From contig JADGAO010000001.1 in assembly GCA_015231995.1 (NCBI GenBank), positions 1 to 52,612 on the forward strand: 52,612 nt of DNA, written 5' to 3'. Within the stretch, counting starts at the first letter, position 1; every line of letters starts with the position of its first letter. The position numbers were made by a program, and so were the translations under genes. The stretch comes from Nitrospinota bacterium. Lineage in GTDB: Bacteria > Nitrospinota_A > UBA7883 > JACRLM01. Below are positions 10,228 through 28,800 of this stretch, piece after piece. Below the pieces are notes generated by a model. The model was not told where the DNA came from, made no database searches, and saw nothing but the letters and a program-made list of their open reading frames with translations.

Positions 10228-10232
10228 CTCCG

Positions 10233-11628: not shown

Positions 11629-12312
11629 ATGGATGAAACCACAATGAAAAACAACACGTTCGCCGAGCGGATGCGACAGATAATGAACGACCAGAAAAGC
11701 GTGAACGATTTTTCGATAAAAACCGGCATCTCCGCGAGCCTGCTTAAAGCCTATTTGAACGGGAAATCATTGCCCGGAGTTGACAACCTGCTGAAAATAG
11801 CAAACTCTGCTGGGGTTAGAACCGGTTGGCTTGCCGAAGGCGAGGCTCCAATGTTAAAGGAAGAAGCCGTTCCATACATCGCAAACGCGGGCTTTGGCGA
11901 GGACTACGATCTTGTCAACGTGGTCTCCGGCAGGAGCGGCGCCGGGCCGGGATTTTTGCCCGACGACTCCGTTGAAATGCGGATAGCCTTCCGCAGGGAC
12001 TGGCTCCAGCGCAAAGGCGACCCTAGGCGGATGAGCCTGATCCGGATTCAGGGTGATTCGATGGAGCCGACTTTAAAATCCGGCGACCTTGTTATGGTCA
12101 ATCTTAACCTTAACTACCTAGACCCATCCGGTGGGATTTACGTCATCACAGTGGACGATCACGTGATGACCAAACGAATCCAGATGTTCACCCAAAGCGC
12201 CAAGGTTAAAATCATCAGCGATAACGAGGTTTACGAGACCGTGGAACGGCATGTTGACGATGTTATTGTCAACGGCAGGGTCGTATGGTTCGCAAGGGAG
12301 ATGGAGAGGTAA
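11629..12312 (+). CDS. CI-type prophage repressor (XRE HTH plus S24 LexA-like autopeptidase domain)
   Basis: 227 aa. N-terminal HTH FSIKTGISASLLKAYLNGKSLP. C-terminal S24 signature IRIQGDSMEPTLKSGDLVMVN ... VMTKRI (Ser/Lys dyad). Confidence 0.9.
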   Translation: MDETTMKNNTFAERMRQIMNDQKSVNDFSIKTGISASLLKAYLNGKSLPGVDNLLKIANSAGVRTGWLAEGEAPMLKEEAVPYIANAGFGEDYDLVNVVSGRSGAGPGFLPDDSVEMRIAFRRDWLQRKGDPRRMSLIRIQGDSMEPTLKSGDLVMVNLNLNYLDPSGGIYVITVDDHVMTKRIQMFTQSAKVKIISDNEVYETVERHVDDVIVNGRVVWFAREMER

Positions 12313-12347
12313 GGCAAATTATAGCGATTTATGTGAAGTATTTTGGA

Positions 12348-15300
12348 TCAGGCTCTGTTTTCTGCGTTTTCTTTCCGAATCTGCTCATACACCTCTTTAA
12401 GCAGTTGTTGGCTAACTACCTCGCGGAAACGATCTTCGTTCATGAACTTCGCGGTGATTTCCTCATTCTGCTCCATTCGGTCAATAAAAAGTCCTTCCAG
12501 AGTCTTACGGAAAACATAGCTGAAGTTTTCCATCGTATTGGCAAGAGCCGCCTGGCGGAGGCTACCATCGGCAACAGCGTCCTCACGTATCGACTCGAAG
12601 AACAATTGATCGCCGGGTTTGAACTCCGTACCAAATCGTTCGTTGAGGATATCAATCAGCTTAGATAGATCGATTTCATCTCCCTGGGTGATTCCGGTTC
12701 CGACAGATACGGGACCCGACACCTCGTTACGCTCACCCGGTTGCATGATGATTGATCCCTCGCTGATTTTTTGCAACCGATAGAATTTGAGCGCCACGTC
12801 GTCATCGAAGTTGTAAATCGGCCCCCGATTGCCCCTAGGCAATTTGGCTAGTAGGAACCTGATGTATGAGTAAAGTTTCTCCAGGTCTGAATCCTGAAAT
12901 GGAATTATTTGCGCCATGAAAGAGTATAGGTTCCGGAAAGCCACTAATGTCTTGCGAAACTCCTCGCGCGCCTCTTCGTCAAGGTTGTTGTATCGCCCCA
13001 CGGCGGGATCGATGCAGGCATTCATCCGGGCGTGGTCAGTGGGTGTCTGGTTGTGCTTTGGCTTAAAAAAGACTTTGCAGAACTCCTCAACCTCGGCTTT
13101 GAAGTACACCTGATGAACATCCAGTTTTGCTTGCAACTCATAGAGTTGTTTTGGTTCAGCCCGCTCCCCGATAATCGTCTGCTCATGGTACGGTTGGAAC
13201 GATTTGAGAATCTCCTCTGGGTCGTTCACGAAATCGAGAATGAAGGTGTCTTCCTTGCCGGTGTGCATACGGTTTAGACGTGAGAGTGTCTGAACCGCCT
13301 GGATTCCTGAGAGACGCTTGTCAACATACATGGTGTGAAGTAGCGGCTGGTCAAATCCAGTCTGGTACTTCTCAGCCACAAGTAGTACTTGGTATTCTTC
13401 GGAGCCAAAGCGTTCCGGAAGCTCTTTCTCACGAATTCCTTTGTTCATGCCAACTTCGGTATATTCAATGCCCGGCGCATCGGGATCGAATACCGTTCCA
13501 GAGAAGGCAACCAGAGTCTTGATCCCAGCATATTCCTTTTCAGTAATGTAATTGTCGAATGCCTGCTTGTATTTCACAGCATGGAGACGGCTCCCTGTAA
13601 CCACCATTGCCTTGGCCTTACCGCCGATCTTGTGCATGGTGAAATTACGGAAGTGCTCGACCATAATTTCGGTCTTCTGTGAAATGTTGTGCGGGTGCAG
13701 GCTCATGAAGCGTGCTAATGCCTTGGCAGCCTTGCGTTTCTCCACCTTGGGATCATCCTCGATGGACTTGATAAGCCGGTAGTATGTCTTGTACGTCGTG
13801 TAGTTCTGGAGCACGTCGAGGATGAATCCCTCCTCAATGGCCTGTCGCATACTGTAAAGATGAAAAGGTTCAGGCTTGCCACCAGAGTCCAGAGTGCCGA
13901 AGACCTCAAGCGTTTTATACTTTGGTGTAGCGGTAAAGGCGAAAAAGCTGATGTTAGGTTGTCGTCCGCGCTTGACCATTGTCTTGAGGATTTCTTCCTC
14001 AAAGTCAGCCAAACCTTCTTCCTCGGCTTTCACCCTTGCCTCTTCCTTAATGCCCGCACCTGCGAGAACACCCTTGAGTTCAGCCGCTGTCTCGCCGCCT
14101 TGGGAGCTATGGGCTTCGTCAATAATGACAGCGTACTGGCGCATGGGCAGATCGCCAATCTTATCGGTGACAAATGGAAACTTCTGCAAGGTAGTGATAA
14201 CGATGGGCACGTTTGATCCAAGAGCTTCAGCCAACTGGGTTGAGTTGAGATCAATTTTTTGCACAACGCCTTGTTTATGCTCGAACTGGTAGATCGTATT
14301 TTGAAGTTGCTGATCCAGGACGATGCGGTCAGTAATGACAATAACGGAGTCAAAAACTTTTTCGTCCTTACTGTCGTAAAGACTGGCGAGCCGATGCGCA
14401 AGCCAGGCGATGGAGTTAGATTTACCGCTTCCCGCCGAATGTTGAATCAGGTAGTTGGTTCCAACGCCACGCACACGAGCATCTGCAACGATGGCACGCA
14501 CACAATTGAGTTGATGGTAGCGCGGGAAGATCATTGCCTCGCGTTTGACCTTTTTGCCGCCAAGCTTCTTTTCCTCTATCTGTAGGTGAATGAACCGCGC
14601 CAAAATGTCTAGCAAACTGTGTCGTTCTAATACTTCTTCCCATAGATAGGCAGACTTGTAAGCGCCAGGATTCTCCGGATTACCCGAACCACCGTTACAA
14701 CCCTTATTAAAGGGCAAGAAATGGGTGCTCCTTCCCGATAGGCGCGTGGCCATATAAACTTCATCCGTATCGGCGGCAAAATGCACGAGTGCCCTCTTCT
14801 TGAACTGAAAGATGAGGTCTGAGGGATCACGGTCATTTTTATACTGCGTGATCCCATGCCGCCACGTTTGGCCGGTCATGGGATTCTTGAGTTCTACCGT
14901 AACCACAGGGATGCCGTTTAGCCCCAATGTTACGTCGAGGGTATTGCCATGCCTGGCCGCGTAGCGGAGCTGGCGTGTTATAGTGAGATGGTTTGACGCA
15001 TAGAGATTTTGCGTGTCTGGATTCATACCGCTTGCCGGGGCGAAATAGGCCATGCGGAAGAGCTTACCAAAGCATTTAAATCCATGCCTCAGGACTGAAA
15101 GACATCCTTCATGGTCGGAGTTGAGCGCCCGGCAGAGATCGTCCAGCAAGGTATCCTCTGCCTTATCCTTCTGGATATTTTCGAGGTACTCCCATTCCTT
15201 GGACTGTGTATTTTTGACGAAGGCAATCACATCGGATGGGAATAGACCGCGCTCCTGGTCAAATGCTTCACTGTCACCTTTCTTGTACCCGCCTGTGGTT

Positions 15301-15356
15301 GTCAGGTGGTGTTCAATGGCAGTCTCGAAGGCATGTTCAGTGTGATGACCAGGCAT
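12348..15356 (-). CDS. hsdR: Type I restriction enzyme R subunit
   Basis: 1002 aa. N-terminal nuclease region (ELK-type PD-(D/E)xK). Helicase motif I HSAGSGKS; motif II IIDEAHSSQ; TATP-like FTATP; QTLSRLNR (motif VI). GGAGAAGG lies upstream of the ATG. Confidence 0.95.
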   Translation of the reverse strand: MPGHHTEHAFETAIEHHLTTTGGYKKGDSEAFDQERGLFPSDVIAFVKNTQSKEWEYLENIQKDKAEDTLLDDLCRALNSDHEGCLSVLRHGFKCFGKLFRMAYFAPASGMNPDTQNLYASNHLTITRQLRYAARHGNTLDVTLGLNGIPVVTVELKNPMTGQTWRHGITQYKNDRDPSDLIFQFKKRALVHFAADTDEVYMATRLSGRSTHFLPFNKGCNGGSGNPENPGAYKSAYLWEEVLERHSLLDILARFIHLQIEEKKLGGKKVKREAMIFPRYHQLNCVRAIVADARVRGVGTNYLIQHSAGSGKSNSIAWLAHRLASLYDSKDEKVFDSVIVITDRIVLDQQLQNTIYQFEHKQGVVQKIDLNSTQLAEALGSNVPIVITTLQKFPFVTDKIGDLPMRQYAVIIDEAHSSQGGETAAELKGVLAGAGIKEEARVKAEEEGLADFEEEILKTMVKRGRQPNISFFAFTATPKYKTLEVFGTLDSGGKPEPFHLYSMRQAIEEGFILDVLQNYTTYKTYYRLIKSIEDDPKVEKRKAAKALARFMSLHPHNISQKTEIMVEHFRNFTMHKIGGKAKAMVVTGSRLHAVKYKQAFDNYITEKEYAGIKTLVAFSGTVFDPDAPGIEYTEVGMNKGIREKELPERFGSEEYQVLLVAEKYQTGFDQPLLHTMYVDKRLSGIQAVQTLSRLNRMHTGKEDTFILDFVNDPEEILKSFQPYHEQTIIGERAEPKQLYELQAKLDVHQVYFKAEVEEFCKVFFKPKHNQTPTDHARMNACIDPAVGRYNNLDEEAREEFRKTLVAFRNLYSFMAQIIPFQDSDLEKLYSYIRFLLAKLPRGNRGPIYNFDDDVALKFYRLQKISEGSIIMQPGERNEVSGPVSVGTGITQGDEIDLSKLIDILNERFGTEFKPGDQLFFESIREDAVADGSLRQAALANTMENFSYVFRKTLEGLFIDRMEQNEEITAKFMNEDRFREVVSQQLLKEVYEQIRKENAENRA

Positions 15357-15433
15357 CTAACCTTCTCCATAGGAATTGATTTGGCGGTAAGGGAGCACAA
15401 CTCTCACAAAATCTATTGTTTTTCCAACAAGCA

Positions 15434-18016
15434 TTATATTGCCCCTCCGCCTGTTACTGGAATGCGTATGCGGAGTCTGTCTCTGATTTCTTGATAAATA
15501 GGCAGAGCGATTCCCTCCGCCACTTCCAACGTTACGACCAATCCATAACGTACTGGCTCTGGGATATCTCCTGCTTCAGCCCGACAATTAACTTTGATCG
15601 TAATTTCATTGCCGTCCTGGAAGTCCACTGCACGGTTGCCTTCCAGTACTTCATGTTGCAACGTTCCTCGCGTGACTGCTCTAAAGTCAGCATCCATTCT
15701 GGTTGGCGCAAGATCGTTTTTTGGATCAAACCATAAATGTGCAACTCGGTAGCTCTGCCGTTGGCAATTCACAGGAGTAAGCCATGCGAGCGTGATTGTT
15801 AGACGGCGTTTTTCAGTTACAGCGGAAAGGCTTGGAGGGAGTGGAAAGTGGAATTCATCGGCTTCTCCATCCCCAAGACTGCCGATTCCTATCACGGTGA
15901 CACGTTGATCCGTACAAGTCCCCACCTTTGCTATATCAGCCACACCGTATCCTAGAAACCGTCCAACATGGTCTTTAAATGTCCTACTGGTCACAGAATC
16001 ACTCAGAATTGATTCGTAAAGCGACCATGCCTGTCCCCAATTCGCCCCATGCGCCAGAAGCGCCTTCAGCAGAACCGTGTTGTATCCCTCATGCAAGTTC
16101 GCGCCATGTTGTACACGCAGATCGCTCAAAACATCGAACAAAAAAGCGGCGGCACGGGAGGCCAAGGCGGTTGCGTCGCTTGTTCCCCTGGAATACCCTT
16201 TCCGGTTCAATTCCCCTGAAGGGCCGGGCGAGGCTACACATTGGCCAGGAGGCTGATTGGAGCCTTTGGGCTGTTGCAGGATAGCTTGGCTATGAGTGTT
16301 CCCCATTTTTTCGGTTAAAAACTGTCTACCGCCAGGGAAGAAAATATCTGGTTTTATCGAACGCCGATATCCTAGGCCATGCGCGCTGAAAGTAGAGGGG
16401 ATTCCCTGCCGCGTAAAGGGATCGATTTGGTTGGAATTGGGGTTTAGCGTGGACTTATCCGAATGACTTGCGCCGAGTGTGAGACCATTAATAGTTTCCG
16501 CTGGAGATAGTAGGCGGCGATGTCTCGTATCCGCTACAATCGCCTTTATAATCGCGCTCTCTCTTTCGTTTGCGGACAGATTTCTCAAATCGCTTCTTGG
16601 AATGTCCAATTCGATGTCTTGCGAATGATTGCCAGCGCTGACCATAAAAAGCACGTTGTACTTCCATGAAAGCCAATCCAGCAAACGCCCAAGGGGACTC
16701 ATCTCCCGGACGAACGGTCTGGAACCATCGCAAACAGACAAATTAATCACACGAACACTGGGAGCCACAGGATCGTTGCCATCTTCGATTTCAAATAGGT
16801 GGCGCACTGCGCGATGAATCAAATCCACAGGAAGAACATCCTCTGGTATCTGTTCAAAAAATTGGCCATCGAAACCTCGCAGAGGTTTCATTATTGGGCG
16901 GACATAAACAGTCCTTCCCAAAGGTTGACCGCCCTCGTCCAGTTCGCCATGACAAATGAGGGAAGCCATAGCCGTACCATGAACGCGCTCCTTCGCCTGG
17001 TAGGAGCTTTCATATCCATCTGGATCGTCCACGATCAGCCGTCCATCCAGTAGGCTATGCCCCGTCAAGGGTAAGCCGTCGAACAAAGCGATGATCGGCT
17101 CACTTCCTTTTGGAATGCTTGATTCTCTGTCTTCAAGAGTCTGCGTCTCTGATAAGTCTTCCGGCAGATGAACCGCGCATTGCCCGACAGGTCGCAGATA
17201 CCATATGTCCTCGCATTGAAGTAACCTGACCTCCCTTTGGGCGATAATTTCTTTAACCTGATCTGCCGGAATCCTCCCAAGTATCCCATGATAGGCAATC
17301 TCAGAAATTACGCATTTCTGAACGATTTCACCCCCCAGAGATGTTACGGCCTGGTTAAGGTAAGCTTCCGATTGCTGTCGGCGATTGGCATCTCCTCGAA
17401 ACCATAGTTCGGCCACGAAAGGAACCAGATTTTGCCCATGCGTAATCCGCATCTGCCAGTCTTCGAATAGGCCCGTATCACGGATGCGGTCTTGCGAATC
17501 CCAAGGACGAATAGTGTGCAGGTGTTCGAAGGCATGTTTCATTGGCGCCAATCTGTGAGGAAACTTCTGGTTTGGATTCTGTTTCCACCCACTGAAAAGG
17601 CTCTGCAACTCTTGGAGAGCGCGTTGATCTGTCATTACAAGGAAAAGCTGTCCCTTCAGCCGCTTTTGCGGATCGCTAACATCCTCGAAGCCATCAACAG
17701 GATCAATGTCATCGAGTTCCAATTCAACGAGCCATTCTAGTCCCTCAACCTTCTTCACAGCTTTGATGAAATCGTCGATAGGGCCGACAGTCTCAAGAAC
17801 TAGCGCCTGTTCTGGCTGAAGACCAAGCGTGTTGTTCTGCAAGGCGAGTCTTTGCCGATCTATGGCCTGTTGAAGACGTTGGAATTGAGGAGTTAAACGC
17901 TCGCCTTGTTGCTGAACCGCAGGCAAACGATATTTAGCGCCACCACCGTGGCGTTTGGCGCGTTCGGCTTTGGCCGTTTTAGGGAAAATAAGGATGGGAT
18001 ATTCTGCCATCTTCAC
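15434..18016 (-). CDS. ietS: S8 (subtilisin-family) serine peptidase, IetS-like
   Basis: 860 aa. Catalytic triad contexts ALFDGLP (Asp), HGTAMASLICHG (His), SAGN (oxyanion Asn) and GTSDATALAS (Ser). The 4-nt ATGA overlap with the upstream AAA+ gene implies translational coupling. The pairing matches the IetAS defence system of Gao et al. 2020. Confidence 0.8.
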   Translation of the reverse strand: MKMAEYPILIFPKTAKAERAKRHGGGAKYRLPAVQQQGERLTPQFQRLQQAIDRQRLALQNNTLGLQPEQALVLETVGPIDDFIKAVKKVEGLEWLVELELDDIDPVDGFEDVSDPQKRLKGQLFLVMTDQRALQELQSLFSGWKQNPNQKFPHRLAPMKHAFEHLHTIRPWDSQDRIRDTGLFEDWQMRITHGQNLVPFVAELWFRGDANRRQQSEAYLNQAVTSLGGEIVQKCVISEIAYHGILGRIPADQVKEIIAQREVRLLQCEDIWYLRPVGQCAVHLPEDLSETQTLEDRESSIPKGSEPIIALFDGLPLTGHSLLDGRLIVDDPDGYESSYQAKERVHGTAMASLICHGELDEGGQPLGRTVYVRPIMKPLRGFDGQFFEQIPEDVLPVDLIHRAVRHLFEIEDGNDPVAPSVRVINLSVCDGSRPFVREMSPLGRLLDWLSWKYNVLFMVSAGNHSQDIELDIPRSDLRNLSANERESAIIKAIVADTRHRRLLSPAETINGLTLGASHSDKSTLNPNSNQIDPFTRQGIPSTFSAHGLGYRRSIKPDIFFPGGRQFLTEKMGNTHSQAILQQPKGSNQPPGQCVASPGPSGELNRKGYSRGTSDATALASRAAAFLFDVLSDLRVQHGANLHEGYNTVLLKALLAHGANWGQAWSLYESILSDSVTSRTFKDHVGRFLGYGVADIAKVGTCTDQRVTVIGIGSLGDGEADEFHFPLPPSLSAVTEKRRLTITLAWLTPVNCQRQSYRVAHLWFDPKNDLAPTRMDADFRAVTRGTLQHEVLEGNRAVDFQDGNEITIKVNCRAEAGDIPEPVRYGLVVTLEVAEGIALPIYQEIRDRLRIRIPVTGGGAI

Positions 18017-19005
18017 TTATCCTCCTCGATTATATCCGAACTCTTTGGCGCGAATCGCTTCTTCCACTGCTCCAGGCATTGCTCTGCGAGCTTCTTTGCG
18101 TCTCCACCAGGCTGGCTCAAAGCGATTCTTCGTAACACGTCGGTTCCAAAGTCTTCAATCTCCGCAAAGCTAATTCCTCTCAAACTTTGGGACAGACTGC
18201 GCGGCGATAGCCCTAAAGCATGGCCCGTGCGTTTCTCGAACCGCCTAAACCATTCCTCTATCTGGCCTTGCTTGGGAGGTGGTAATTCCAGGCGAATTTG
18301 AAATCGGCGCCATACCGCACGGTCGAGCAATTCCGGATGGTTGCTGGCCGCAACCACGACGACGTAACTTGGAAGAGCGTCAACCTGAAGCAGTAACGAG
18401 CTGACAACCCGCTTGATCTCTCCAGTTTCATGGATATCACCCCGCTCCTTGCCTACCACGTCGAATTCATCGAAGAACAAAACGCATTGCCGCGACCGGG
18501 CATGTTCAAAGACTTGCCCTATGCGTTGCGCGGTTTCTCCGAGATAGCTCCCGATGACCGCTTCATAGCGCACTACAAGCAATGGAGCATTTATAGCGTC
18601 GGCGATTGCCTCAGCCAAAGAGGTCTTTCCATTTCCAGGAGGCCCCGCCAACAGCACCCTGTTTCGAGGCTCCAGATTGTATGAACGGAGTAGATCAGCC
18701 CGATGTTGCTCTTCAACCAGTTCACGCACGGCCTTTTCCGCCTCTTGGGGCAGTATCAAGTCCTCAATGTGCCGTCCGGGGATCAGCTCGGCTACAAGCG
18801 GAACAGAAAGAGGCCGGGCCTGCGGCGCGAGAGTCCGGGAACGACCGTTATTGCCCTGAAGTTGGGCAATGAGCCGATCAGCTAAAATAGCGTGGTTTTT
18901 TGCCCTCTCATCGGAAGCCAGCGCTTCCACGGTCTTTTGAAACTGAGCCATGTCTCCTTTGGCTCCAGCTCTTACCAGATTCAGAATTAAGTCCGAACGT
19001 GCCAT
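18013..19005 (-). CDS. ietA: Classical-clade AAA+ ATPase, IetA-like
   Basis: 330 aa. Walker A LAGPPGNGKTSLA; Walker B VLFFDEFD; sensor/arginine-finger region ASNHPELLDRAVWRRF. Confidence 0.8.
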   Translation of the reverse strand: MARSDLILNLVRAGAKGDMAQFQKTVEALASDERAKNHAILADRLIAQLQGNNGRSRTLAPQARPLSVPLVAELIPGRHIEDLILPQEAEKAVRELVEEQHRADLLRSYNLEPRNRVLLAGPPGNGKTSLAEAIADAINAPLLVVRYEAVIGSYLGETAQRIGQVFEHARSRQCVLFFDEFDVVGKERGDIHETGEIKRVVSSLLLQVDALPSYVVVVAASNHPELLDRAVWRRFQIRLELPPPKQGQIEEWFRRFEKRTGHALGLSPRSLSQSLRGISFAEIEDFGTDVLRRIALSQPGGDAKKLAEQCLEQWKKRFAPKSSDIIEEDK

Positions 19006-19019
19006 TATAGTTTTCCTGG

Positions 19020-19142
19020 TTAAACTTCCTGCGCCGCCACTTCGCTGGTTTGGCGCACATCAATCCCCCCAATAGCGGCGGAAAGAATAATTATATTGGA
19101 ATCGTTTTCAGGTTCGTCCCCAATGAAAGCGATAATATTCAT
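19020..19142 (-). CDS. Possible 40-aa ORF coupling hsdS to ietA
   Basis: The ATG at 19142 overlaps the hsdS stop as ATGA. It encodes MNIIAFIGDEPENDSNIIILSAAIGGIDVRQTSEVAAQEV and stops 14 nt before the ietA ATG. It is below the ORF-track cutoff and rests on position only. Confidence 0.3.
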   Translation of the reverse strand: MNIIAFIGDEPENDSNIIILSAAIGGIDVRQTSEVAAQEV

Positions 19143-21115
19143 TTAACACCTCGCACACGTGTTAGGCGGCCTTTCCCTCTTGGCGTTAGCCCCTTATCTC
19201 TCATCCAGTTTAAGGCTCTCTGTAACCTGTCTTCATCAAATCTGTTTTTGCTTTCGTGCCAGTTCTCCCGCACTTCTTTAATTATGTCGTTATCCGAGAA
19301 TCTGGTTCCATTAAGTAGAAGATCGTTCCACGCGGCGAAAAGCGTTGCCACTATTTCCACTCGCTCTGTATTTAAACTGCGAAGCAACTCAATGATTGCA
19401 TATATCTGATCCCGCATATCAGCCCAATATCTGTCGAAGTATTTGGCATGTTTCCCAGCTTCAGCCAACGGAATGTAATATGTACGCTCCCCTTCTTTCT
19501 TCGCCTTATACCATTTGGCTTTTTCCATCTGACTTTCGATAGATCGCAACATCTGGTTGTCAAAAGGCCCTGCGGCTTGACGCTGAAAATTCCCGTCCAA
19601 ATCTATCCCAAGATGGTTTTCGTACAGATAAATGATTTTCTCGAATTTAACGCGCCCGAACGTGGGTTCTTTGTGAAGTTTATGAACAATCTCCGCCCCC
19701 AGTACGGCTCTTTTAAACTCCGGCGGAGCTTGGCGTTGCGCATGATGCTCAACTAGCTTTAGACCGCTTCGCACATCAATTTTCCCAGTTACCGCCGCAG
19801 AGATGATGGCGGAGCGGTATTCCTTCAGCTTTTCGATGGATTCTCGAACCTTCTCTATCAATCCATCAATCCGCGCCGTCTCCCGGTCAAGAAACGCGGC
19901 AATGGTGCGCTGTTCGACAAGGGGCGGAACTCCAATCATAAGATTTGCATACTTATCAGCACTAACGTTCTGAATCGTGGCTTGGATAAAACTGTTGTTG
20001 AGCCAGTTCCAATAGACGCTTGAACGGGCAAAGTAGGCGGCAAATTGAGCAAACATTTGTTTAGGGGAAAATCGAGCGCGAATTAGATAACCAGCATATG
20101 CCGCACGCCCCCATGACTCCCGGTAGAGAAAGGTCTTGCCGACCGTGGCACCGCTTCTCGCAAAAAGCAAATCACCTTCCTTAAGTAAATACGGTCGCGC
20201 AACATCCTCTTGAAGAGATTTGAGTGTGTCCTCGCGGAGCAGACCTTCTTCGTTTACATCAGTGATGCGAACATAGCGAGGCAAGTCCGGGTCATCCAGT
20301 TCTGCAACCTCATTCGCCCCATATTTCAGTGGTTCGACCAAGAGAAACTTCAAACGTTTCGTCTCCCAATGCTCCGGTATCTCGCCCAGCCATTCAACGC
20401 CGGATGGTTTCATCTTGGCGCTAGGGTTGAGGCCTTTGGTGACAGCGTGGCTGATGAGGGCTGTGCGCTTTTCCCTCAACAATTCAATCTGCCGCTCTTT
20501 CTTCTCTATCAACCCATCAATCCGCGCCGTCTCCCGGTCAAGAAACGCGGCAATGGCGTGTTGTTCGACGAGGGGAGGGACAAGAAAGATTGCGTTTTCT
20601 AATCCATATTTGCCCAAACCATATCGAGTAATTCCCGTAGCTTCTACTCGAAATTGGTCATTTATACCTCGCGCCACAAAAGCACGAAACAAATACCTCC
20701 CATCCATGCAATCAGAATGTGGGCGAATATGGGCGAGGTGATATCCGCAAAGCACGTTATCAAAATGCTCATCGACATAGGCTGGAACTGCAATGTCTGC
20801 CCATTCTTCAGAATCCTTTGTGATAAGCACGTCGCCTCTCTTGATCGTAAAACGACGTATTTCTTCTTTTGTTGCCGTTGCATTCATGAAGTCAATATCG
20901 GAGGTTATGCTGTCGTTGTAGTAAACGTCAACGTAGTTGCAAAGGCGCACTGGAAGCTCGCCTTCCAGTGTGTGCTTATTGACACTGCTGAAGTTGACAG
21001 TGGCAATACGTTTCAGCCTGAGCACTTTCCAATGCTCCGGTATCTCGCCTAGCCATTCGATGGATGACCGCCCACGCTTTAGATACTGCAATTTAGGCAT
21101 AAAAAGAGCGGCCAC
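19139..21115 (-). CDS. hsdS: Type I restriction specificity subunit with two TRDs and an extra C-terminal domain of about 208 aa
   Basis: 658 aa. Duplicated conserved regions: EWLGEIPEHW (x2) and PPLVEQ.(A/T)IAAFLDRETARIDGLIEK (x2). The canonical HsdS end AAVTGKIDV falls at residues 441-448, but the ORF runs on for another 208 residues (19139-19765). The start is uncertain (GTG 21115 or ATG 21100). Confidence 0.9.
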   Translation of the reverse strand: MAALFMPKLQYLKRGRSSIEWLGEIPEHWKVLRLKRIATVNFSSVNKHTLEGELPVRLCNYVDVYYNDSITSDIDFMNATATKEEIRRFTIKRGDVLITKDSEEWADIAVPAYVDEHFDNVLCGYHLAHIRPHSDCMDGRYLFRAFVARGINDQFRVEATGITRYGLGKYGLENAIFLVPPLVEQHAIAAFLDRETARIDGLIEKKERQIELLREKRTALISHAVTKGLNPSAKMKPSGVEWLGEIPEHWETKRLKFLLVEPLKYGANEVAELDDPDLPRYVRITDVNEEGLLREDTLKSLQEDVARPYLLKEGDLLFARSGATVGKTFLYRESWGRAAYAGYLIRARFSPKQMFAQFAAYFARSSVYWNWLNNSFIQATIQNVSADKYANLMIGVPPLVEQRTIAAFLDRETARIDGLIEKVRESIEKLKEYRSAIISAAVTGKIDVRSGLKLVEHHAQRQAPPEFKRAVLGAEIVHKLHKEPTFGRVKFEKIIYLYENHLGIDLDGNFQRQAAGPFDNQMLRSIESQMEKAKWYKAKKEGERTYYIPLAEAGKHAKYFDRYWADMRDQIYAIIELLRSLNTERVEIVATLFAAWNDLLLNGTRFSDNDIIKEVRENWHESKNRFDEDRLQRALNWMRDKGLTPRGKGRLTRVRGVK

Positions 21116-21148
21116 AAGATGTTCTACGTGTTTGACGCAAAGTTAGCA

Positions 21149-21253
21149 TCACTCCCCCTTCGTAATGGTCTCATTGGGTGGAGGAGGTGGAGGAGGAGGC
21201 TTTCCAGCCTGCCCAGCATCGTTGCCAGATTGATTTCCATTCTTATGTGTCAT
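21149..21253 (-). CDS. Small proline-rich ORF (34 aa)
   Basis: MTHKNGNQSGNDAGQAGKPPPPPPPPNETITKGE. AAGGAG lies 7 nt upstream of the ATG. It is a paralogue of the next small ORF (shared DAG..GK.PP.PPPN). Confidence 0.45.
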   Translation of the reverse strand: MTHKNGNQSGNDAGQAGKPPPPPPPPNETITKGE

Positions 21254-21336
21254 TTCCAGACTCCTTGAATCGTTAAAATCTAACGGAAGAAAGCTTATTT
21301 CCACGCCCCGATCATGACAGCCGAAGCAAGCGACCT

Positions 21337-21510
21337 TTATTTGGCTTTATCGCCAGAAACATCCTTAATGATCGTAATGTTGTCCGAATTCGGTTTTTCC
21401 ACATAAGTTGCCATCTTATTTGGAGGCGGGGAGGGTGGTGTCCCTTTCCCTGCATCCTTGGTTGACGCAGTGCTTGTTGGTGGTGTAGGTTTATTCTTTT
21501 CGTCGGTCAT
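21337..21510 (-). CDS. Small proline-rich ORF (57 aa)
   Basis: MTDEKNKPTPPTSTASTKDAGKGTPPSPPPNKMATYVEKPNSDNITIIKDVSGDKAK. Its ATG lies 2 nt after the stop of the upstream membrane-protein gene. An AGGGGA Shine-Dalgarno-like element is present. Confidence 0.45.
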   Translation of the reverse strand: MTDEKNKPTPPTSTASTKDAGKGTPPSPPPNKMATYVEKPNSDNITIIKDVSGDKAK

Positions 21511-21512
21511 AG

Positions 21513-22136
21513 TCATATCCCCTGAACTTTCATAATGAAATAAAAGAAGGCCTGCATAGCTATTGCAACAAGTGCTATACCAGATGCCAGTACAGAGTCC
21601 TGAAAAGCCTTCCTTCGTCTTTCGTTGATTTCCGCATTTCTTGGTTGAGCTTCAACTAAACGCTCACAGAGATTATGGAGCATCGCTACATCCGGATCAA
21701 CGCGGTTACTGGACTCGCTGTTTTCTTTGTTGTCCTTCAAATAATTCTGATAACCCTTCTGCCAATTATGCCAAACGTCCATATTGGCCAAGGTCTTATA
21801 TTGGCGCGGGTAAATGCAATAAAAGAGAGAAGCTACGCTAACAAGCAACAATACTATCGCAACCAGTGAGGAAAAGAGGTAGGTAAATTTAATAACTGAC
21901 ATACAGCAATCAGCGCTCATAAAACAAGATTTCACAATATCTATCCGCCCCAAAGCAACGATAACGCCGCCAAGCAGTGGAACGGCTACCAACATGACAC
22001 CGGATTTTTGGTATATTTTATCAGCCTCATCCATATCGCGTTTATACTGGTCGTAACATAAATCATAGAAGATTCTGCTCATTCCGTGATTTCTCCCAGC
22101 ATCATGACAATTTACTTCTTGCTTATTTTCCATCAT
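21513..22136 (-). CDS. Uncharacterised three-TM membrane protein (candidate defence effector)
   Basis: 207 aa. Hydrophobic helices GVMLVAVPLLGGVIVALG, FTYLFSSLVAIVLLLVSVASLFYCIY and SGIALVAIAMQAFFYFIM, with a soluble linker of about 70 aa. The layout recalls SLATT/DUF5706-type effectors; this is from memory, not a search. Confidence 0.6.
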   Translation of the reverse strand: MMENKQEVNCHDAGRNHGMSRIFYDLCYDQYKRDMDEADKIYQKSGVMLVAVPLLGGVIVALGRIDIVKSCFMSADCCMSVIKFTYLFSSLVAIVLLLVSVASLFYCIYPRQYKTLANMDVWHNWQKGYQNYLKDNKENSESSNRVDPDVAMLHNLCERLVEAQPRNAEINERRRKAFQDSVLASGIALVAIAMQAFFYFIMKVQGI

Positions 22137-22281
22137 CAGGTTCCCCGGCTTGGTTGTCCAGCGTCATTTGTGAACGGGCAATAGCCTCGCATTGAACAGG
22201 AGCAACAGAGCACTGCTCCCGTATCTCTCCCGCCCATTTAGCGCCGGAGAGATTATTGGCTGAATAGGATTTTCGGTTCAT
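22123..22281 (-). CDS. Possible 52-aa ORF coupled to the Abi gene
   Basis: The ATG at 22281 overlaps the Abi stop as ATGA (MNRKSYSANNLSGAKWAGEIREQCSVAPVQCEAIARSQMTLDNQAGEPDDGK). It overlaps the start of the membrane-protein gene by 14 nt. The listed ORF extends to 22314. Confidence 0.35.
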   Translation of the reverse strand: MNRKSYSANNLSGAKWAGEIREQCSVAPVQCEAIARSQMTLDNQAGEPDDGK

Positions 22282-23192
22282 GAAACATCGCTCCAGATGG
22301 GCAAGGATTCCCACTTATCAGGAAATCCCATGTCGGATGGATTCACTCTCTTGAAATCCCCAATAAACGTTTTAACCCGCTGTGGCCAAGTGGTGGATGG
22401 GCTGATAATCTTGAGCAGATAGGCAAGCATCGTCAGCGTGTTGTAAATCCTATATTTCGCATCCTCATGCCTATTGAAGCATCCGCTAATATCGTTTGGG
22501 TGGTCAGGGATTTTCATCGTTATTGTCAAATGGCGGTTCCATAGGCGGCCATGATGCGCCGAAATATTCCTGACGTGGTTAAGGTGGTGAACGAAGGAGT
22601 TGAGCGCCTTTTCGTCCAGGTTGTACGTCTTTGAAATGGCCTGCCTATCGCTTCGCTGACGAATGACTTGATACCACTTTGCCAAGTCCCCGAAAGAGAG
22701 AATCTCGAAAGCTGACCAGATTGGCGGAAAAGCAGGCTCGGTGTACTTATTCCGGTAGTGTTCTATAAAAGTCTCTTTGCTTTCTCCAAGGTTCGCTTTC
22801 AGTTGCTCGACGCACTTTGAGTAGGTTTCAGGTTTTTTAAAAATGGTTTGGTTTAGATACGCATGGCTTCCATGTTTGGCCGCCAGGTGATTAACGAGCA
22901 TTGAACGGAAAGAAACCTCGAACCGCTCCACGGCCTCAAGAACCAGCAAGCGAAGTTTTCTATCCAGTACGTACAATTCCACCACATCGTCAAATGTGGA
23001 GCCTTCCGCAAACCTGTGGTCATCTTCTTCGCCGGAAGGCATTTCCAAAGTAAACCAATAAATCCTGAGCCTATAGTAGTTAATGTGAGTAAGATATCTG
23101 TAGGCTTTGGGCCGATCCGGGACGTGAAGACCGCGCCGCATGAGGAGGTCTATTTGTTCATCTATTGACAGGGGAGGCTTAGAGTATTTCAC
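22278..23192 (-). CDS. Abi_2 family (AbiD/AbiF-like) abortive-infection protein
   Basis: 304 aa. The N-terminus KYSKPPLSIDEQIDLLMRRGLHVPDRPKAYRYLTHINYYRLRIYW is the hallmark Abi_2 opening. Downstream are ...NISAHHGRLWNR (HEPN-like R-x4-H-type context). GTG start. Confidence 0.85.
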   Translation of the reverse strand: MKYSKPPLSIDEQIDLLMRRGLHVPDRPKAYRYLTHINYYRLRIYWFTLEMPSGEEDDHRFAEGSTFDDVVELYVLDRKLRLLVLEAVERFEVSFRSMLVNHLAAKHGSHAYLNQTIFKKPETYSKCVEQLKANLGESKETFIEHYRNKYTEPAFPPIWSAFEILSFGDLAKWYQVIRQRSDRQAISKTYNLDEKALNSFVHHLNHVRNISAHHGRLWNRHLTITMKIPDHPNDISGCFNRHEDAKYRIYNTLTMLAYLLKIISPSTTWPQRVKTFIGDFKRVNPSDMGFPDKWESLPIWSDVS

Positions 23193-23526
23193 AAAGCCCC
23201 CTGAAAAAAATAAACCCGCCTGGGTGCGCTTTCCAGCGTGAGCCGGTAGAGGCGTGGCGGGTGTTTTTCTGTATCCTTAAGGTTAAGTTAACAATCATTT
23301 TGAGTTTAGTCAATAGGAAAGGAATCAGGGCGGCGAGATTCGTCCAGCTCAATTGTCGTATCAGTGATACGACAATCCGCTTGTCGGAAAATACTTCGGC
23401 GAACTTGAGCATATGGGCTAAGGCGGCGTAGCTAAATCCGGAGCCGTAGTTTTGAGTCAATTCTTGCGACGGCGTGGCAAGAATCTGATCTCCGTAATCG
23501 GCGGGTTTAATTGGTTTCTGGCTCAT
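23179..23526 (-). pseudogene. 5' remnant of a DUF1016/YhcG-like PD-(D/E)xK nuclease gene
   Basis: The first 68 codons or so (…ILATPSQELTQNYGSGFSYAALAHMLKFAEVFSDKRIVVSLIRQLSWTNLAALIP) resemble the N-terminal domain of YhcG/DUF1016 proteins, common passengers of type I R-M loci. After that the ORF becomes unrelated low-quality sequence and no nuclease core is present. Its start overlaps the hsdM stop by 4 nt. Confidence 0.55.
23204..23268. terminator. Bidirectional terminator-like structure between the DUF1016 remnant and the Abi gene
   Basis: A7 run (23204-23210); outer stem ACCCGCC (23214-23220) / GGCGGGT (23256-23262) enclosing an inner GCGCT-ttcc-AGCGT hairpin; then G plus a T5 run (23264-23268). 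The large internal loop makes function uncertain. Confidence 0.3.
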
Positions 23527-25535
23527 TCCGTCACCTCCGCCAGCATATCGGCGATTTCCTTTTCAATCCGTTTAAGGTCAGTTTCGATCTCCTTCAACGG
23601 GCGTGGCGGCGTGTACTTGTAGAAATAACGGTTGACGTTGATCTCGTAGCCCACCTTTGTTTTGGACTCATCCACCCAAGCATCTGGGACATGGGGGAGA
23701 ACTTCGCGCTTGATGTATTCACCCACGTTATCTTTTAGCGGTACGTTTTCATAGTCGCGCAGTTCTACGTCTGGTTCAGGGTTGCCGTCCCTGTCGGCGC
23801 AGATATCGGCGGTATCATCGCGTTCGGAAAGCGCCATGAGGATGGCCTTGAAAAGCGGCGCTGGAACTTTCAAATCCGCATTCTTGAGTGCCTCTTTCAT
23901 CGCTTCGGAAAATTTGTCCCGGTTTTTGACAATTTCCAGCGTTGATAGCCCCTCAAGCGCTCTGATAATCGCTTCCTGAAACTCCAGCCCCTCTTCGACC
24001 TCCTTCTCGGCGGCTTTGGTGTCCTTCCGCTTCTTGCTGGTAGCGAGGTTGACGAAGGGCGTGGCCTCCTTCAGCCGTGCTATGCGTTCCTTGTCTACAG
24101 CGAAATTGAGGCGCAGGGGTCGTTCGACTGTTAAGCGGCGATAACCAAAATCGGCGTTATCGAAAATGCGTACATGCTCACCGCTCCTAAAACTCCCATA
24201 AAGCCGTGTAATGTCGTCACGCTGGCCATCGCAGATTTCGTTACGTTTATTGCCGAGGGACTTTCGCATTTTCTTGAAGAAACTCGTCCCGTCTACAAGC
24301 TGAATCTTGCCCCTGCGGTTCCGCTCTTTTCGGTTTGTGACGATCCAAAGGTATGTGTAGATACCAGTGTTGTAGAAAAGCTGGTCAGGTAGGGCAACTA
24401 TGGCCTCCAACCAATCGTTTTCGATAATCCAGCGCCGGATTTCGCTTTCGCCAGAACCGGCGGAGCCTGTGAAAAGCGGAGAGCCGTTGAAAACGATGCC
24501 GAGCCGAGTTCCACCCTCCTTCGGGTCTTTCATCTTGCTTATCATGTGCAGGAGGAAAAGAAGCGATCCGTCGTTGATCCGTGGAAGCCCGGCTCCGAAC
24601 CTGCCGCCGAAACCCTGTTCTTCATGCTCCCTCGCGATAAGATCGGCTTCAGGTTTCCACTCCACCCCAAAGGGAGGATTGGCCAGCATGTAATCAAACT
24701 TGTGATGTGGAAAATGGTCGTCTGTGAAGCTGTTGCCGAAGGCTATATGCTCGATGTCCTGCCCTTTTATCATCATGTCAGACCCGCAGATGGCGTGGGC
24801 CTGGGCGTTATAGTCCTGGCCAAAGACTTCTAGGCGGGCGTCGGGATTAAGCTCGCGCATGTACCCCTCGGCAACTGACAGCATACCCCCCGTTCCGCAC
24901 GCCGGATCGTAGAGGGTCTTGACGATCCCTTTAGTGGTGAGAATATCGCCATCGGGCATGAAGAGAAGGTTCACCATGAGGCGAATGACCTCACGCGGGG
25001 TGAAGTGGTCGCCAGCCTCTTCGTTGGACGCTTCGTTGAATCTCCTGATGAGTTCCTCGAAGATGTAGCCCATTTCGATGTTTGATACCGCGTTTGGGTG
25101 GAGGTCAATTTCACAAAACTTCGATACCACTAGATACAGGCGGTCTGCCTTGTCGAGTTTGGCGATGTGTTCCTCAAAACCGAAGTGTTCGACAATTTCA
25201 CGGGCGCGGGCGGAGAAGCCCTTGATGTAGTTGGTCAGGTTCGCGGCAATATTGTTGGGATCGCCTTTAAGTTTCTCGAAGGTGAAGCGACTGGTGTTGT
25301 AGAACGGCACACCCGTGGCGCGGCATAGAATGGGATCAACGTTCTTGACTTTTCCGCCAGCCAGTTTCTTCTGTTGTTCAAGCGCCTTTTCCTTTGTGGG
25401 TTCCAGAACACAGTCCAGCCGTCTAAGAACTGTCATGGGTAACATGATATCCTTGAACTGGTTCGGGCGATATGGCCCGCGCAGTAGATCAGCAACCGAC
25501 CAGATAAAGCTAACCTTTGCGCCGAAATTATTCAT
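23523..25535 (-). CDS. hsdM: Type I restriction-modification N6-adenine DNA methyltransferase subunit
   Basis: HsdM_N-like N-terminus (FIWSVADLLRGPY). SAM motif I LYDPACGTGGML; motif IV MLANPPFG. The ORF is open to 25607, but the ATG at 25535 (MNNFGAKV...) has AGAGG 5 nt upstream and matches typical HsdM N-termini. Confidence 0.93.
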   Translation of the reverse strand: MNNFGAKVSFIWSVADLLRGPYRPNQFKDIMLPMTVLRRLDCVLEPTKEKALEQQKKLAGGKVKNVDPILCRATGVPFYNTSRFTFEKLKGDPNNIAANLTNYIKGFSARAREIVEHFGFEEHIAKLDKADRLYLVVSKFCEIDLHPNAVSNIEMGYIFEELIRRFNEASNEEAGDHFTPREVIRLMVNLLFMPDGDILTTKGIVKTLYDPACGTGGMLSVAEGYMRELNPDARLEVFGQDYNAQAHAICGSDMMIKGQDIEHIAFGNSFTDDHFPHHKFDYMLANPPFGVEWKPEADLIAREHEEQGFGGRFGAGLPRINDGSLLFLLHMISKMKDPKEGGTRLGIVFNGSPLFTGSAGSGESEIRRWIIENDWLEAIVALPDQLFYNTGIYTYLWIVTNRKERNRRGKIQLVDGTSFFKKMRKSLGNKRNEICDGQRDDITRLYGSFRSGEHVRIFDNADFGYRRLTVERPLRLNFAVDKERIARLKEATPFVNLATSKKRKDTKAAEKEVEEGLEFQEAIIRALEGLSTLEIVKNRDKFSEAMKEALKNADLKVPAPLFKAILMALSERDDTADICADRDGNPEPDVELRDYENVPLKDNVGEYIKREVLPHVPDAWVDESKTKVGYEINVNRYFYKYTPPRPLKEIETDLKRIEKEIADMLAEVTE

Positions 25536-25754
25536 AAAACCTCTACTGTCGCGGATTCGCAGGATCACCAAGTCATTGCGCGAAGATAACCTCCCACACG
25601 CAATCATCTTTTCTCAACAGGAGTCGAACTAACCGTTGGCCAATTTTACGGGTTTTGAAAACCCTTTCCCTCATTGGCTAATGGTTGTATAGCTTACGTC
25701 GAACTCCCCTTAAGATACCCATGCTATTATGGCGCATTTTACGCCATTACCGCG

Positions 25755-25774
25755 AAAAAACTCCCATTGGGAAG
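25755..25774 (-). terminator. Weak intrinsic terminator candidate after the giant gene
   Basis: Minus strand reads CUUCC-CAAU-GGGAG (5-bp stem including one G.U) followed by UUUUUU, about 55 nt downstream of the stop at 25831. The stem is short. Confidence 0.35.
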
Positions 25775-25830
25775 TATAATGAGTGGAATCATGGCGAAAT
25801 GTTTTTCCCTTCAAGCATCCAACCAGTAAC

Positions 25831-28800
25831 TCATTGATATTCCGCCCAATCCTTCCTTGCCGCCCGGTAAAGCGTCTGTGCCTGCCGTTGCAACGATTGT
25901 GGCGTAATCAAGTGTTCCTCCGCCGGTGTTGCCATCGCGTTGTACCGATAGACTCTCTCAAGGAACTTCACCATATCGGATGGCGGCGCTCCACGGCTTG
26001 CGAGTATGCGATACTCGTCATACAATGCGTTCCGGCGGTCGGCGTAGTTTTCGGATTCTCGGCGCCCCTCGTACCGCCTTGCGAGAATCATTGATGTCCG
26101 TGTCGGCTGGAATCCCACGCCTTTCATAACGGCCTCGGCCAAGGTCGGTTTAACGATTCGTCCGCGCTCATCGAATATCGCCTTGTGGCGCTTCGTCGCC
26201 AACCCGTGCGTGTATTCCGAATACGCCTTAAACGGGGCGGAGAACGCCGTGGGTAACAGGGCTTTGGGAGCGCCAAGCATATCGCCTTTGGAGAGCGCGT
26301 CGAACCCTTCATGAAAGTCCTTGATAACGCCTCCGCCCGCTCCTAAAAGCTCCCACACGTTGGAGGGTATCCCCACGCCGATGTTGGGTTGAAGCGATCC
26401 GCTTAACTGCACGGGTGTAAAATACCCGACGGCTCCGTATCTCGCCGCCCGTTCGCCGTTTTCTCCAAGGTACTTGCGTGTCGTGTCCCACCACCACTTT
26501 TCAGGATCATTGTCTATTCCAATGGCGGACAGCATGGCGCCAGCCGCCAAGACGATGCCGCTCTTCATTGGGATGGCCATCCCCCCGCCCAGGACAATCG
26601 GCGCAAGAGATGCGTAAATCATGGCTTTATAGTTTTTCCGCCTGAATCCAAGCTCGTATAGCAACTGCATGTAGTTGTGACCATACTTGCTGAAAATCAA
26701 CATCGGCTGAAAAGCCCGTCCCATCGTCCCCTGCGCCCAGATGGGCAATGTGGCTTTGTTGTAGATTCCATGCGCCCGGTCGGACGCGAGCTTGGCGGCC
26801 TTGACCGCTTCGTCATGACTCATGCCGGACTGAACGGCGACACGATAGGCGGCCAGTATGGTTGAACCACGATTTATCCGTTCAGTGAACCCGAACGGCG
26901 CCATAGCGGTTTCGATGAGTTTCGCCCATGCGTTGGAGATTTGCCCCGTCCGTGTCCGGCTGTTGATGTGGGACAAGGCTTCCGTTGTGGCTTGTGGATT
27001 CGCCCAAGCTTTTTGCTTGAGTTCGTTCAGGAGTTTGCGCTCGTTCTCCTTGAGCTTTACATCCTTGCCTGCCATCCACAGGCCGAAATCCCGTACCGAT
27101 TTCGATAGATGGCGGACGATGGCGCCAGCGCCGACTATCTTGCCTCCGGCGTATTCGTGGATGGCCGCCGGAGCGGTTGTGGGGAGCGACAACAGGTTCA
27201 CCGCCGCCGACTTCACGTTGAATCCAAGATACTTGAACGCCGCCAGCGATTTGATAAACCCCAACTGTCCGTCAATGTGGTCACTATTCCGAAGCTGATT
27301 GGCGACGTAGGACACGGCCAGATCGTAGGTCTCCGCTTCCTTGCGGGAGTCTATTTCATTTATGGCGGAGTACATCTCCCTTGCGGCCTCAGCTTTGGCG
27401 AGGCCGGAGGATAAGGACGATGCGTACTGCAACAACGCAGTCTTGGGGTCGGTTTCATATCCATGAACCACCGGCATGTCCACATTCCTGGCGATGGCGC
27501 GGGAGCGGAACCCGCGAGCCTTGATAAGGTTGGCCATCTCGATTATCAGTGATTCGTAAACCTGTTTTGTGTTCTCGCCAAGTTTTGCCGTCCGGATGGC
27601 TTCTTCAATGGCTTTCTGCGTCATAGGAATCTTCAACTCCTGATAGACCGATTCAGCCATCCGCTCGGCCTCTTGAACCGGCTCTACCTTCCATCCTTTG
27701 GCTTTAAGCTCCGCATGAAGTTTCTCGGCTTCAACGCGATTGCGATGGTAACGATACAGATTGCCGCTTTTGTCCTTCGCCCGGACGACGTATTCACCGA
27801 TCCTCTGACGCGGAGCGTATGAGCCGCGCAGTTCGCCCATTTCATCCAAAGCTTCGCGCAAGGTCAGGCGGTGTTGTTTCCCAGCGTCGTCGGCTACAGT
27901 TATCTCCTGCGCCAGCATCTTTCGGGATAACGGGTCTTTCCCCTGAAACTCAAGCCAAGTGTCCAGCGCACGGTCATAAGCCCGGCGAACCGATCTCCAG
28001 GCGTCTATTACCTCTTTGGAATAGCCCCGCCGTTCCATCTCGCCGATTGTCTTGGCTTCTTTCCACGCTGATTTGTCCGTAACGTCTTTGGGCGGGTTCC
28101 AATCCTTCGTGTCCGCCCATACCAGGACATTTTCAAGCTGTTTGTATTGAGGTTTTTTGAGTCTGTCCAGTTTGCGGTAGATTTCCTCGCCGTCGTTATC
28201 GGTGAGGAACTTGTTCAGATGCTCATGCCGCGTGTCCTGCCTCCGTAGAGCGGTGTCAATGAACCTCTTGAAGACGGGATGGTTCCAGTATTCCGGGGAG
28301 AGTAGCGTTTTCTGCAAAAACCCAACCGCTCCCACCGGCTGGATGTTCACCTCCGCGTATCCAGCCTTCCGCAAGGCGCTGGCGGCTTTTTCCGCCGATT
28401 CCATTGATTGATGCGTGTCGCGTCGTTCCGCGCCGGTCGCCGGATCATATCCAGACACCTGATACTTCTTTATAGGGAACAGCGAGTTGTATATGGCGTG
28501 GCTATATGCCAGCGTTGTTTTAACGAAATCCTCCTGCGTAGGCTTTTCGGTCATCGGCTCCGATGCGTATTTGTCAGCCGTATCGTCCAAGCCGGTGAGT
28601 GATAAATTCAGCGCGGCGGAATCAGAAGTAGCGGTCTCCTTGTTACCAACCGGCGGTTGTGGCGGCGCATTCTGATTTTCCCATGACTGTTTTAGCGCTC
28701 GTATTGCCTCCAGCATGTCCGTATGGGAGATATTCATTTTCACGCCCAGGGCTTTGGCTATGCGCCGTAAGACCTGCCGCAGTTTGGCGATAATCCATCG

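Follow-up and report, generated by a model that had tools for sequence, protein, structure and literature searches.

The DNA analysed here, called the window below, is a stretch of 52,612 nucleotides from a Nitrospinota bacterium (contig JADGAO010000001.1, positions 1 to 52,612), and its subject is a prophage-borne block in which the three genes of a type I restriction-modification (R-M) system are separated by other genes. One co-oriented gene string on the minus strand spans 12348-25607; the first-pass annotation had read it as a multi-layer defence island built on a phage-borne type I R-M operon, and this reading is borne out by profile matches (Pfam, PADLOC), by the prophage context and by comparison with relatives. 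We consider it likely from the sequence that the block is a layered and modular defence island, which was captured as a unit by a temperate phage and remodelled by cassette exchange, and the modules of which are independent.

Gene content of the block

The genes hsdM (23523-25535), hsdS (19139-21115) and hsdR (12348-15356) all lie on the minus strand, as do the other genes of the block described below, and every open reading frame (ORF) named in the first-pass annotation was found in its place. The intact hsdM encodes 670 amino acids (aa), matches the PADLOC model MTase_I with 983 bits and the Pfam families N6_Mtase (182 bits) and HsdM_N, and has the motif NPPF at 286; its start was set at 25535 because the MTase_I match begins at residue 26 of the 694-aa ORF. 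HsdS (658 aa) has two target-recognition domains (TRDs), which an extension of about 208 aa follows at the C-terminus; the PADLOC Specificity_I match spans residues 10-450 (401 bits), Pfam Methylase_S matches in two stretches, and repeat finding showed duplicated conserved segments, which fits two TRDs. HsdR is an intact protein of 1002 aa with the Pfam domains HSDR_N, SWI2_SNF2 and T1R_D3, the nuclease motif D141-x13-E155-x-K157 and the helicase motifs GSGKS309 and DEAH413, and it aligns over its full length with its relatives (79-87% identity). By these genes and motifs, the three proteins have the sequence make-up of a type I R-M system.

The interval between hsdS and hsdR, the S|R junction, holds ietA (18013-19005), an AAA+ ATPase of 330 aa, and ietS (15434-18010), an S8 subtilase-like protease of 858 aa counted from the ATG at 18010. 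PADLOC IetA is matched at full length (476 bits), with Walker A GPPGNGKT121 and Walker B VLFFDE175 present, and the IetS model is matched with 1084 bits over 850 of 855 profile positions, with D313, H346, N463 and S613 in canonical contexts; on this sequence evidence, the pair is assigned to IetAS. According to PMC13069673, IetAS is a protease/ATPase defence of the toxin-antitoxin (TA) type with an unknown mechanism, and the paper cites it as a TA pair of the Agrobacterium Ti plasmid and as an anti-phage system of Gao et al. 2020. The genes of the window share with it the order of AAA+ ATPase and then S8 protease, the full-length profile matches and the catalytic residues, whereas their branch differs in that it usually sits inside type I R-M operons: three of the four sampled IetS relatives do so, one between hsdM and hsdS (the M|S junction) of another HsdM family and two at S|R, and one stands alone.

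The M|S junction contains abiD (22278-23192), an Abi_2 family gene of 304 aa that matches all 184 of the 184 positions of Pfam Abi_2 (184.6 bits) and PADLOC AbiD with 250 bits, and that has a HEPN-type Rx4H motif (RNISAH at 208). The PADLOC models for type I R-M, IetA, IetS and AbiD were thus all matched in this region. Between hsdM and abiD lies a 115-aa ORF (23179-23526) with 64 homologous residues, in which Pfam DUF1016_N matches only positions 40-102 (63 residues); no YhcG_C PD-(D/E)xK nuclease domain was found in this ORF, only the DUF1016_N part being matched. It aligns with residues 59-122 of a 360-aa YhcG protein encoded at the same place in a related operon (L089, see below), and by this alignment it is a remnant of a full YhcG gene.

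Downstream of abiD is a gene for a protein with three transmembrane (TM) segments (21513-22082). It has 189 aa when read from M19 (22082) of a 207-aa ORF, a start chosen because homologue alignments begin at residues 19-23. PADLOC PycTM matches it (3.4e-5), and precomputed Pfam assignments place PF18967 (PycTM) on it and on most of its homologues; a direct Pfam scan gave no PF18967 at E<=1. The homologues, 15 from a word index and 119 cluster representatives, are nearly all about 183 aa long. Next to this gene lies mini-ORF 1 (21337-21516), which encodes a Pro-rich mini-protein of 59 aa and is its conserved partner. The pattern PPxPPPNTxSTK..Q.IsKPSAPlNK..T..E..SD is common to the window and three other loci (L134, L135 and L136), and because the mini-proteins align across these four loci although the TM proteins of the three others are only 51-57% identical to that of the window, mini-ORF 1 is regarded as a real gene. 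A second Pro-rich mini-ORF (21149-21253; 34 aa from ATG 21253) is paralogous to the N-terminal half of the first and is probably a gene as well, and L136 also has two Pro-rich ORFs. In L134 and L136, the PycTM-like gene starts on the hsdM stop codon (ATGA), with one or two Pro-rich ORFs between it and hsdS, and in L135 it lies outside an operon, where the upstream "66-aa ORF" is a relic of the hsdM C-terminus (YTPPRPLEEIESDIKTIERDILRMLAEVT); the cassette therefore follows an hsdM end, intact or as a relic, in all three loci. It resembles the Pycsar PycTM effectors (PF18967) in its profile matches, of which that in PADLOC is weak and that in Pfam limited to the precomputed assignments, but differs in its Pro-rich partner of about 60 aa, in its docking on the hsdM stop codon and in the lack of a cyclase or a cyclic nucleotide monophosphate-binding domain. 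No pyrimidine cyclase (PycC) was found among the ORFs of the block or beside the homologues in L134-L136, and with neither a cyclase nor such a binding domain alongside, the cassette is not taken for a Pycsar system. On these comparisons, the PycTM-like protein and the Pro-rich mini-protein make up a recurrent cassette without a name.

Two further ORFs lie at junctions. The 40-aa ORF (19020-19142) overlaps the hsdS stop codon by ATGA and had no family match in profile searches; it is still open in the sister prophage described below despite an in-frame 27-nt indel, and it is missing in a relative where hsdS directly abuts ietA, so that its coding status appears doubtful. The 52-aa ORF (orf52, 22123-22281) likewise had no family match in profile searches and is absent from the sister prophage. 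The nine ORFs counted between the hsd genes at first reading are hence all present, but about six of them are real genes, one is a gene fragment and two are junction ORFs; by the profile and alignment evidence, IetA, IetS, AbiD, the 3-TM protein and mini-ORF 1 are the solid genes among the inserts. Homology searches found no housekeeping or phage-morphogenesis families among the inserted genes, the result that had been named at first reading as a refutation.

Relatives, relics and junctions

An ENA metagenome contig (L001) carries a sister prophage of about 94% nucleotide identity, with the 3' end of the giant late gene, hsdM, the same YhcG fragment, Abi_2, hsdS, ietA, ietS and hsdR. Only two things set it apart, the cassette after AbiD and the TRDs of hsdS: a 220-aa ORF between Abi_2 and hsdS (4918-5580 of L001) replaces orf52, the PycTM-like gene and the mini-ORFs. 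Because this cassette and the TRDs differ, the inner junction is a variable spot even between near-identical phages. The 220-aa ORF had no Pfam or PADLOC match and may be another unnamed embedded candidate; it was compared with the PycTM-like cassette as a possible relative and proved to be unrelated.

A JGI contig (L089) has the order helix-turn-helix (HTH) gene, hsdM, YhcG (360 aa), DUF4145, hsdS, Abi_C, ietA, ietS and hsdR, and its proteins are 81% (HsdM), 81% (IetA), 68% (IetS) and 79% (HsdR) identical to those of the window; its IetS also occurs in a Hydrogenedentes metagenome-assembled genome (MAG). Since L089 already has the composite layout, this layout predates the capture by the phage, and what the phage took up was probably an island that had been assembled beforehand. 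Relatives of HsdM number in the thousands, and it is more than 80% identical to proteins of MAGs from many phyla, and the GC content of the block is 0.496 versus 0.54-0.55 for the phage; by composition and similarity, the block is of foreign origin. A 4533-aa gene beside the L089 operon was considered as a relative of the giant gene of the window, and comparison showed the two to be unrelated. We also observed that in L089 and in another chromosomal locus (L003) a small HTH gene (HTH_3 or HTH_17), possibly a controller, lies directly upstream of hsdM, and that the phage copy is without such a gene and has 295 bp of phage-specific sequence instead.

The M|S insert itself contains traces of its assembly. 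Immediately upstream of the PycTM-like ATG, AAGTAAATTGTCATGATGCTGGGAGAAATCACGGAATGAGC aligns with the end of hsdM in the window, AAGGAAATCGCCGATATGCTGGCGGAGGTGACGGAATGAGC, and at the protein level KK*IVMMLGEITE* aligns with the hsdM end EKEIADMLAEVTE*; DNA and protein were also aligned to L136. The segment 22079-22120 (minus strand), which abuts the PycTM-like ATG via ATGA, is by these alignments a decayed hsdM 3' relic that carried the ATGA junction along. On its other side, orf52 is probably an hsdS 5' relic rather than a gene, an assignment that we make with moderate confidence: an independent repeat finder detected a 30-nt repeat (D3) that ties 22210-22239 to both hsdS TRD starts, and KWAGEIREQC in orf52 resembles EWLGEIPEHW, which opens each half of HsdS, with a local score of 43.5 that was reached by none of 500 shuffles, if narrowly (maximum 43.0). 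Relics flank the cassette, one of an hsdM 3' end and the other probably of an hsdS 5' end, and together they suggest that the M|S insert arose by joining an "hsdM-YhcG'-AbiD-hsdS'" segment to an "'hsdM-PycTM-mini-hsdS" segment.

The overlaps between neighbouring genes had been taken at first as a sign that the block is co-translated as one unit. Four ATGA overlaps are indeed present (hsdM/DUF1016 fragment, AbiD/orf52, 3-TM/mini-ORF 1 and hsdS/40-aa ORF), but a single translation unit does not follow from them, as ATGA or GTGA at the hsdM stop is found family-wide, in 59 of 81 loci of the HsdM family (25 of the 34 loci in which M|S holds no insert and 16 of the 25 in which it does). Because it occurs with or without inserts, the overlap is a trait of the hsd gene end that is re-used by the next gene, and of the four overlaps here two open into ORFs that lack support and a third into the DUF1016 fragment. 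For ietS, the profile and the relatives favour ATG 18010, which lies 2 nt past the ietA stop; a GTGA overlap would require GTG 18016. Just upstream of the abiD start, a stem (CCCGCC/GGCGGG) followed by UUUAUUUUUUU (23203-23262, minus strand) is a possible internal terminator. The 7-bp GC stem between the YhcG fragment and AbiD appears in both the minimum free energy and the centroid structure, and the z-score and fold energy of the stretch are no better than those of shuffled sequence; this stem and U-run may divide the block into separate transcription units.

Embedding is not peculiar to this block. We sampled 80 species-representative loci of the HsdM family, 58 of which had hsdM, hsdS and hsdR in order, and counted a gap of more than 300 bp between hsd genes as an insert; among the 58 complete loci, 24 had an insert at M|S, 33 at S|R, 39 at either and 18 at both. 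Because 39 of 58 loci carry inserts, the use of the operon as a scaffold is a property of the whole HsdM family. Among these inserts are 100 ORFs with a length of 100 aa or more, with matches to PIN, DUF4411 with Peptidase_M78, Fic/SoFic, Schlafen-AlbA_2/HATPase_c_4, RhuM and YhcG (PDC-S02), and further insert families were AbiEii, FRG, DarT, HipA, GmrSD and a TIR domain. In one locus (L015, 12113-14004), a transposase gene of the IS200 type (Y1_Tnp) interrupts hsdS.

On the phage side, 44 IMG/VR contigs have HsdM relatives, about 31 of them with hsdM, hsdS and hsdR and roughly half of those with inserts, gap sizes being rough here because second-TRD matches distort the inferred hsdS starts. 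One of these contigs has AbiD at M|S, and one has a YhcG N-terminus together with the HsdS extension. A search of 50,697 deposited phage genomes gave HsdR-like matches in only 12 records, in two of which the match extends over nearly the full length, and IetS relatives were found neither in IMG/VR nor in these deposited genomes. Given the few cases in IMG/VR and among deposited phages, it is uncommon, though not unique, for a phage to carry a complete type I system with nested cargo.

Prophage context

The left end of the prophage is marked by a tRNA-Pro(GGG) gene (3085-3161, plus strand; ARAGORN), which is the probable integration site, and a tyrosine integrase gene (3263-4390, minus strand; Pfam Phage_integrase, 5.4e-39) adjoins it. 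After the integrase follow PrimPol, a Cas4-like nuclease, a superfamily 2 helicase, AAA_24, a Cro-like HTH protein and a divergent CI/S24 repressor, and to the right of the block lie genes that match PHROG baseplate, head-closure and virion proteins. The tRNA-linked integrase, the CI/Cro switch, and replication and virion genes are all present, as is typical of a temperate prophage. A repeat search found no second copy of the tRNA 3' end within the window. The 3' part of the tRNA gene (3117-3162) has a 46-bp match of 97.8% identity in Paraburkholderia phage IPK, which is probably an attachment core common to an unrelated phage; the early region of the window matched nothing in deposited phages beyond these 46 bp.

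The first-pass annotation had put the block in the interval from the CI repressor gene to the end of the late operon, a position that its two flanking genes confirm. On one side is the CI-like repressor gene (11629-12312, plus strand; HTH and S24 peptidase), which matches Pfam Peptidase_S24 and a PHROG transcriptional repressor (6e-41). It converges with hsdR, with 35 bp between the two stops (12313-12347), a stretch without a recognisable terminator. In the lysogen, transcription of cI could continue into hsdR in the antisense direction. On the other side, the late operon ends in a giant methylase-helicase gene (25831-36990, minus strand; 3719 aa), which is DarB-like and has Pfam Helicase_C, ResIII and weak methylase matches; the PHROG "DarB-like antirestriction" match falls on the ORF that adjoins it. 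The DarB-like region (25831-37582, minus strand) is directly upstream of the R-M block, and the phage therefore carries an anti-restriction weapon and a restriction system together. In the interval that separates hsdM from the giant gene, a pattern scan found a weak terminator-like hairpin with T6 (25760-25775, minus strand).

Over 8013-19810, the window is matched at 100% identity by an independent NCBI contig (L086), which joins hsdR to the CI and replication genes; because this contig contains the hsdR-cI junction, the junction is no assembly artefact. The L086 contig breaks at 19810, beside an 81-bp near-identical repeat in hsdS (19850-19930 and 20501-20581), which may reflect assembly ambiguity or population heterogeneity from shuffling of hsdS domains. 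Queries with the CI protein and with the C-terminus of the giant gene found no sister prophages in IMG/VR or in JGI metagenomes, and an exact look-up of the CI protein gave no match.

Independent modules or a coupled complex

We propose that the backbone of the block is a complete type I R-M system whose family is widely exchanged between phyla, and that two junctions, one after the hsdM stop and one after the hsdS stop, would act as docking sites at which cassettes are swapped by recombination between operon versions. The M|S site would have received the YhcG fragment, AbiD (a HEPN-type abortive-infection protein), the PycTM-like membrane protein and one or two Pro-rich mini-proteins, and the S|R site IetA/IetS, in which the AAA+ ATPase would restrain the S8 protease. 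In the lysogen, HsdM2S would methylate host and prophage DNA and HsdR2M2S would cut unmethylated incoming DNA, while AbiD, IetAS and the membrane protein would serve as independent back-up against phages that escape restriction, via toxin release or abortive infection. The block would travel as cargo of a temperate phage that is integrated at tRNA-Pro, in a place behind the late operon where it converges with cI, and it would probably have its own promoter. Several points weigh against this proposal: the right end of the prophage lies outside the window, no sigma-70-like promoter was found upstream of hsdM (the promoter type of the host may differ), and the recurrence of IetAS and of the PycTM-like cassette with type I operons could mean dependence on the R-M system instead of hitch-hiking.

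Such dependence has a precedent in PrrC of EcoprrI, an anticodon nuclease encoded between hsdS and hsdR that is held latent by the R-M enzyme. The block has in common with this case that an effector gene sits inside a type I R-M operon, and differs in that no PrrC-like protein is found here. By analogy, the inserted modules would be coupled to the R-M complex physically or through regulation; they would stay latent as long as the complex is intact and fire once a phage anti-restriction protein disables it, with the C-terminal DarG-like domain of HsdS as the tether. This is compatible with IetAS relatives lying inside type I operons in three of four sampled contexts, with the position of the PycTM-like cassette after the hsdM end in three of three, with start codons that dock on hsd stop codons, and with the statement that PrrC occurs almost exclusively inside type I R-M systems (Payne et al. 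2024, 10.1101/2024.01.29.577857). The HsdS extension also speaks for it: residues 451-658 (19139-19765) match the C-terminal parts of the PADLOC models MTase_I, Specificity_I and DarG, and in an AlphaFold2 model (predicted local distance difference test score 79.9) the sole convincing fold match was the Mycobacterium tuberculosis DarTG complex (7yk3 chains B/D, probability 1.00, TM-score 0.50-0.58). The DarG-model match is limited to positions 163-327, no DarG macrodomain was found in the extension, and a sequence search with it against the PDB gave no match.

The extension is conserved in L001, L027, L029, L030 and L102. HsdS proteins with this domain occur in planctomycete loci and in one locus from IMG/VR, and the genes downstream vary from case to case. 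A Schlafen-like gene follows it in L027, a helicase and GmrSD in L030, and hsdR directly in L102; because the downstream genes differ between loci, no fixed partner of the extension is evident, and DarT and IetAS were both rejected as such a partner. The cargo also varies widely between loci with nearly identical HsdM, and IetAS lies at S|R here, at M|S in L087 and alone in L088. Furthermore, ietAS cloned alone was assayed outside an R-M context, and the embedded TgvAB of Vibrio cholerae VPI-2 was tested experimentally and works without its R-M system (10.1101/2024.04.04.588119). TgvAB is likewise an independent defence nested in an active type I R-M system on a mobile island and was read as layered defence, although the cargo there is GmrSD-like on a genomic island, while here it is IetAS, AbiD and the PycTM-like protein on a prophage. 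We therefore regard a guard role of the modules as unlikely. A form of it in which the type I R-M complex is a physical scaffold and the DarG-like HsdS domain and the stop-codon docking couple IetAS and the PycTM-like/mini-protein pair to the restriction state seems decidedly unlikely to us; if true, it would generalise the PrrC paradigm, on a phage that itself encodes a DarB-like anti-restriction protein.

It is very unlikely in our judgement that the block serves mainly for addiction, in which case loss of the element would be lethal to the cell through IetAS, first described as a plasmid-stabilising TA pair, and perhaps through the R-M system and the membrane toxin, with defence being secondary. 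Many inserts of the relatives are indeed of the TA type (PIN, HipA, AbiEii, DarT, Fic), but the same cassettes occur in chromosomal R-M loci without a mobile context, IetAS, AbiD and type I R-M match models of an anti-phage library at full length, and stabilisation and defence are not mutually exclusive. That the block is a silent or non-functional remnant in a defective prophage, as its gene fragments and relics, the possible internal terminator, the unrecognised promoter and the unseen right end might indicate, is hardly credible, since hsdM, hsdS, hsdR, ietA, ietS and abiD are full length with catalytic motifs and the block is 94% conserved in the sister prophage with its ORFs kept.

The layered island of independent modules thus stands as our preferred reading, and its layout as such is already known. 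Genes embedded in type I R-M, BREX and DISARM operons are frequent, and PADLOC PDC families were derived from them under the term "guilt-by-embedding" (Payne et al. 2024, 10.1101/2024.01.29.577857); the window is a further case that leaves the general phenomenon unchanged. It agrees with the cases of that study in its co-oriented non-hsd genes between hsdM, hsdS and hsdR, in a cargo of defence and PDC families, and in the match of its YhcG fragment to PDC-S02, and differs in that both junctions are filled, at least three modules are present, the whole is temperate-phage cargo and the scars of serial recombination are visible. What is new here, as read from the sequence, is the cassette swap between sister prophages, the pre-assembled chromosomal precedent (L089), the relics at the junctions, the reinterpretation of the ATGA overlaps and the PycTM-like/mini-protein cassette. 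The PycTM-like/Pro-rich cassette and the fusion of HsdS to a domain like the DarG C-terminus are flagged as candidates. An island of this kind that travels as phage cargo seems to be rare among deposited phage genomes, and the block offers a clear example of how defence islands would be assembled, with a backbone that has two docking sites, exchange of cassettes and scars that can still be read.

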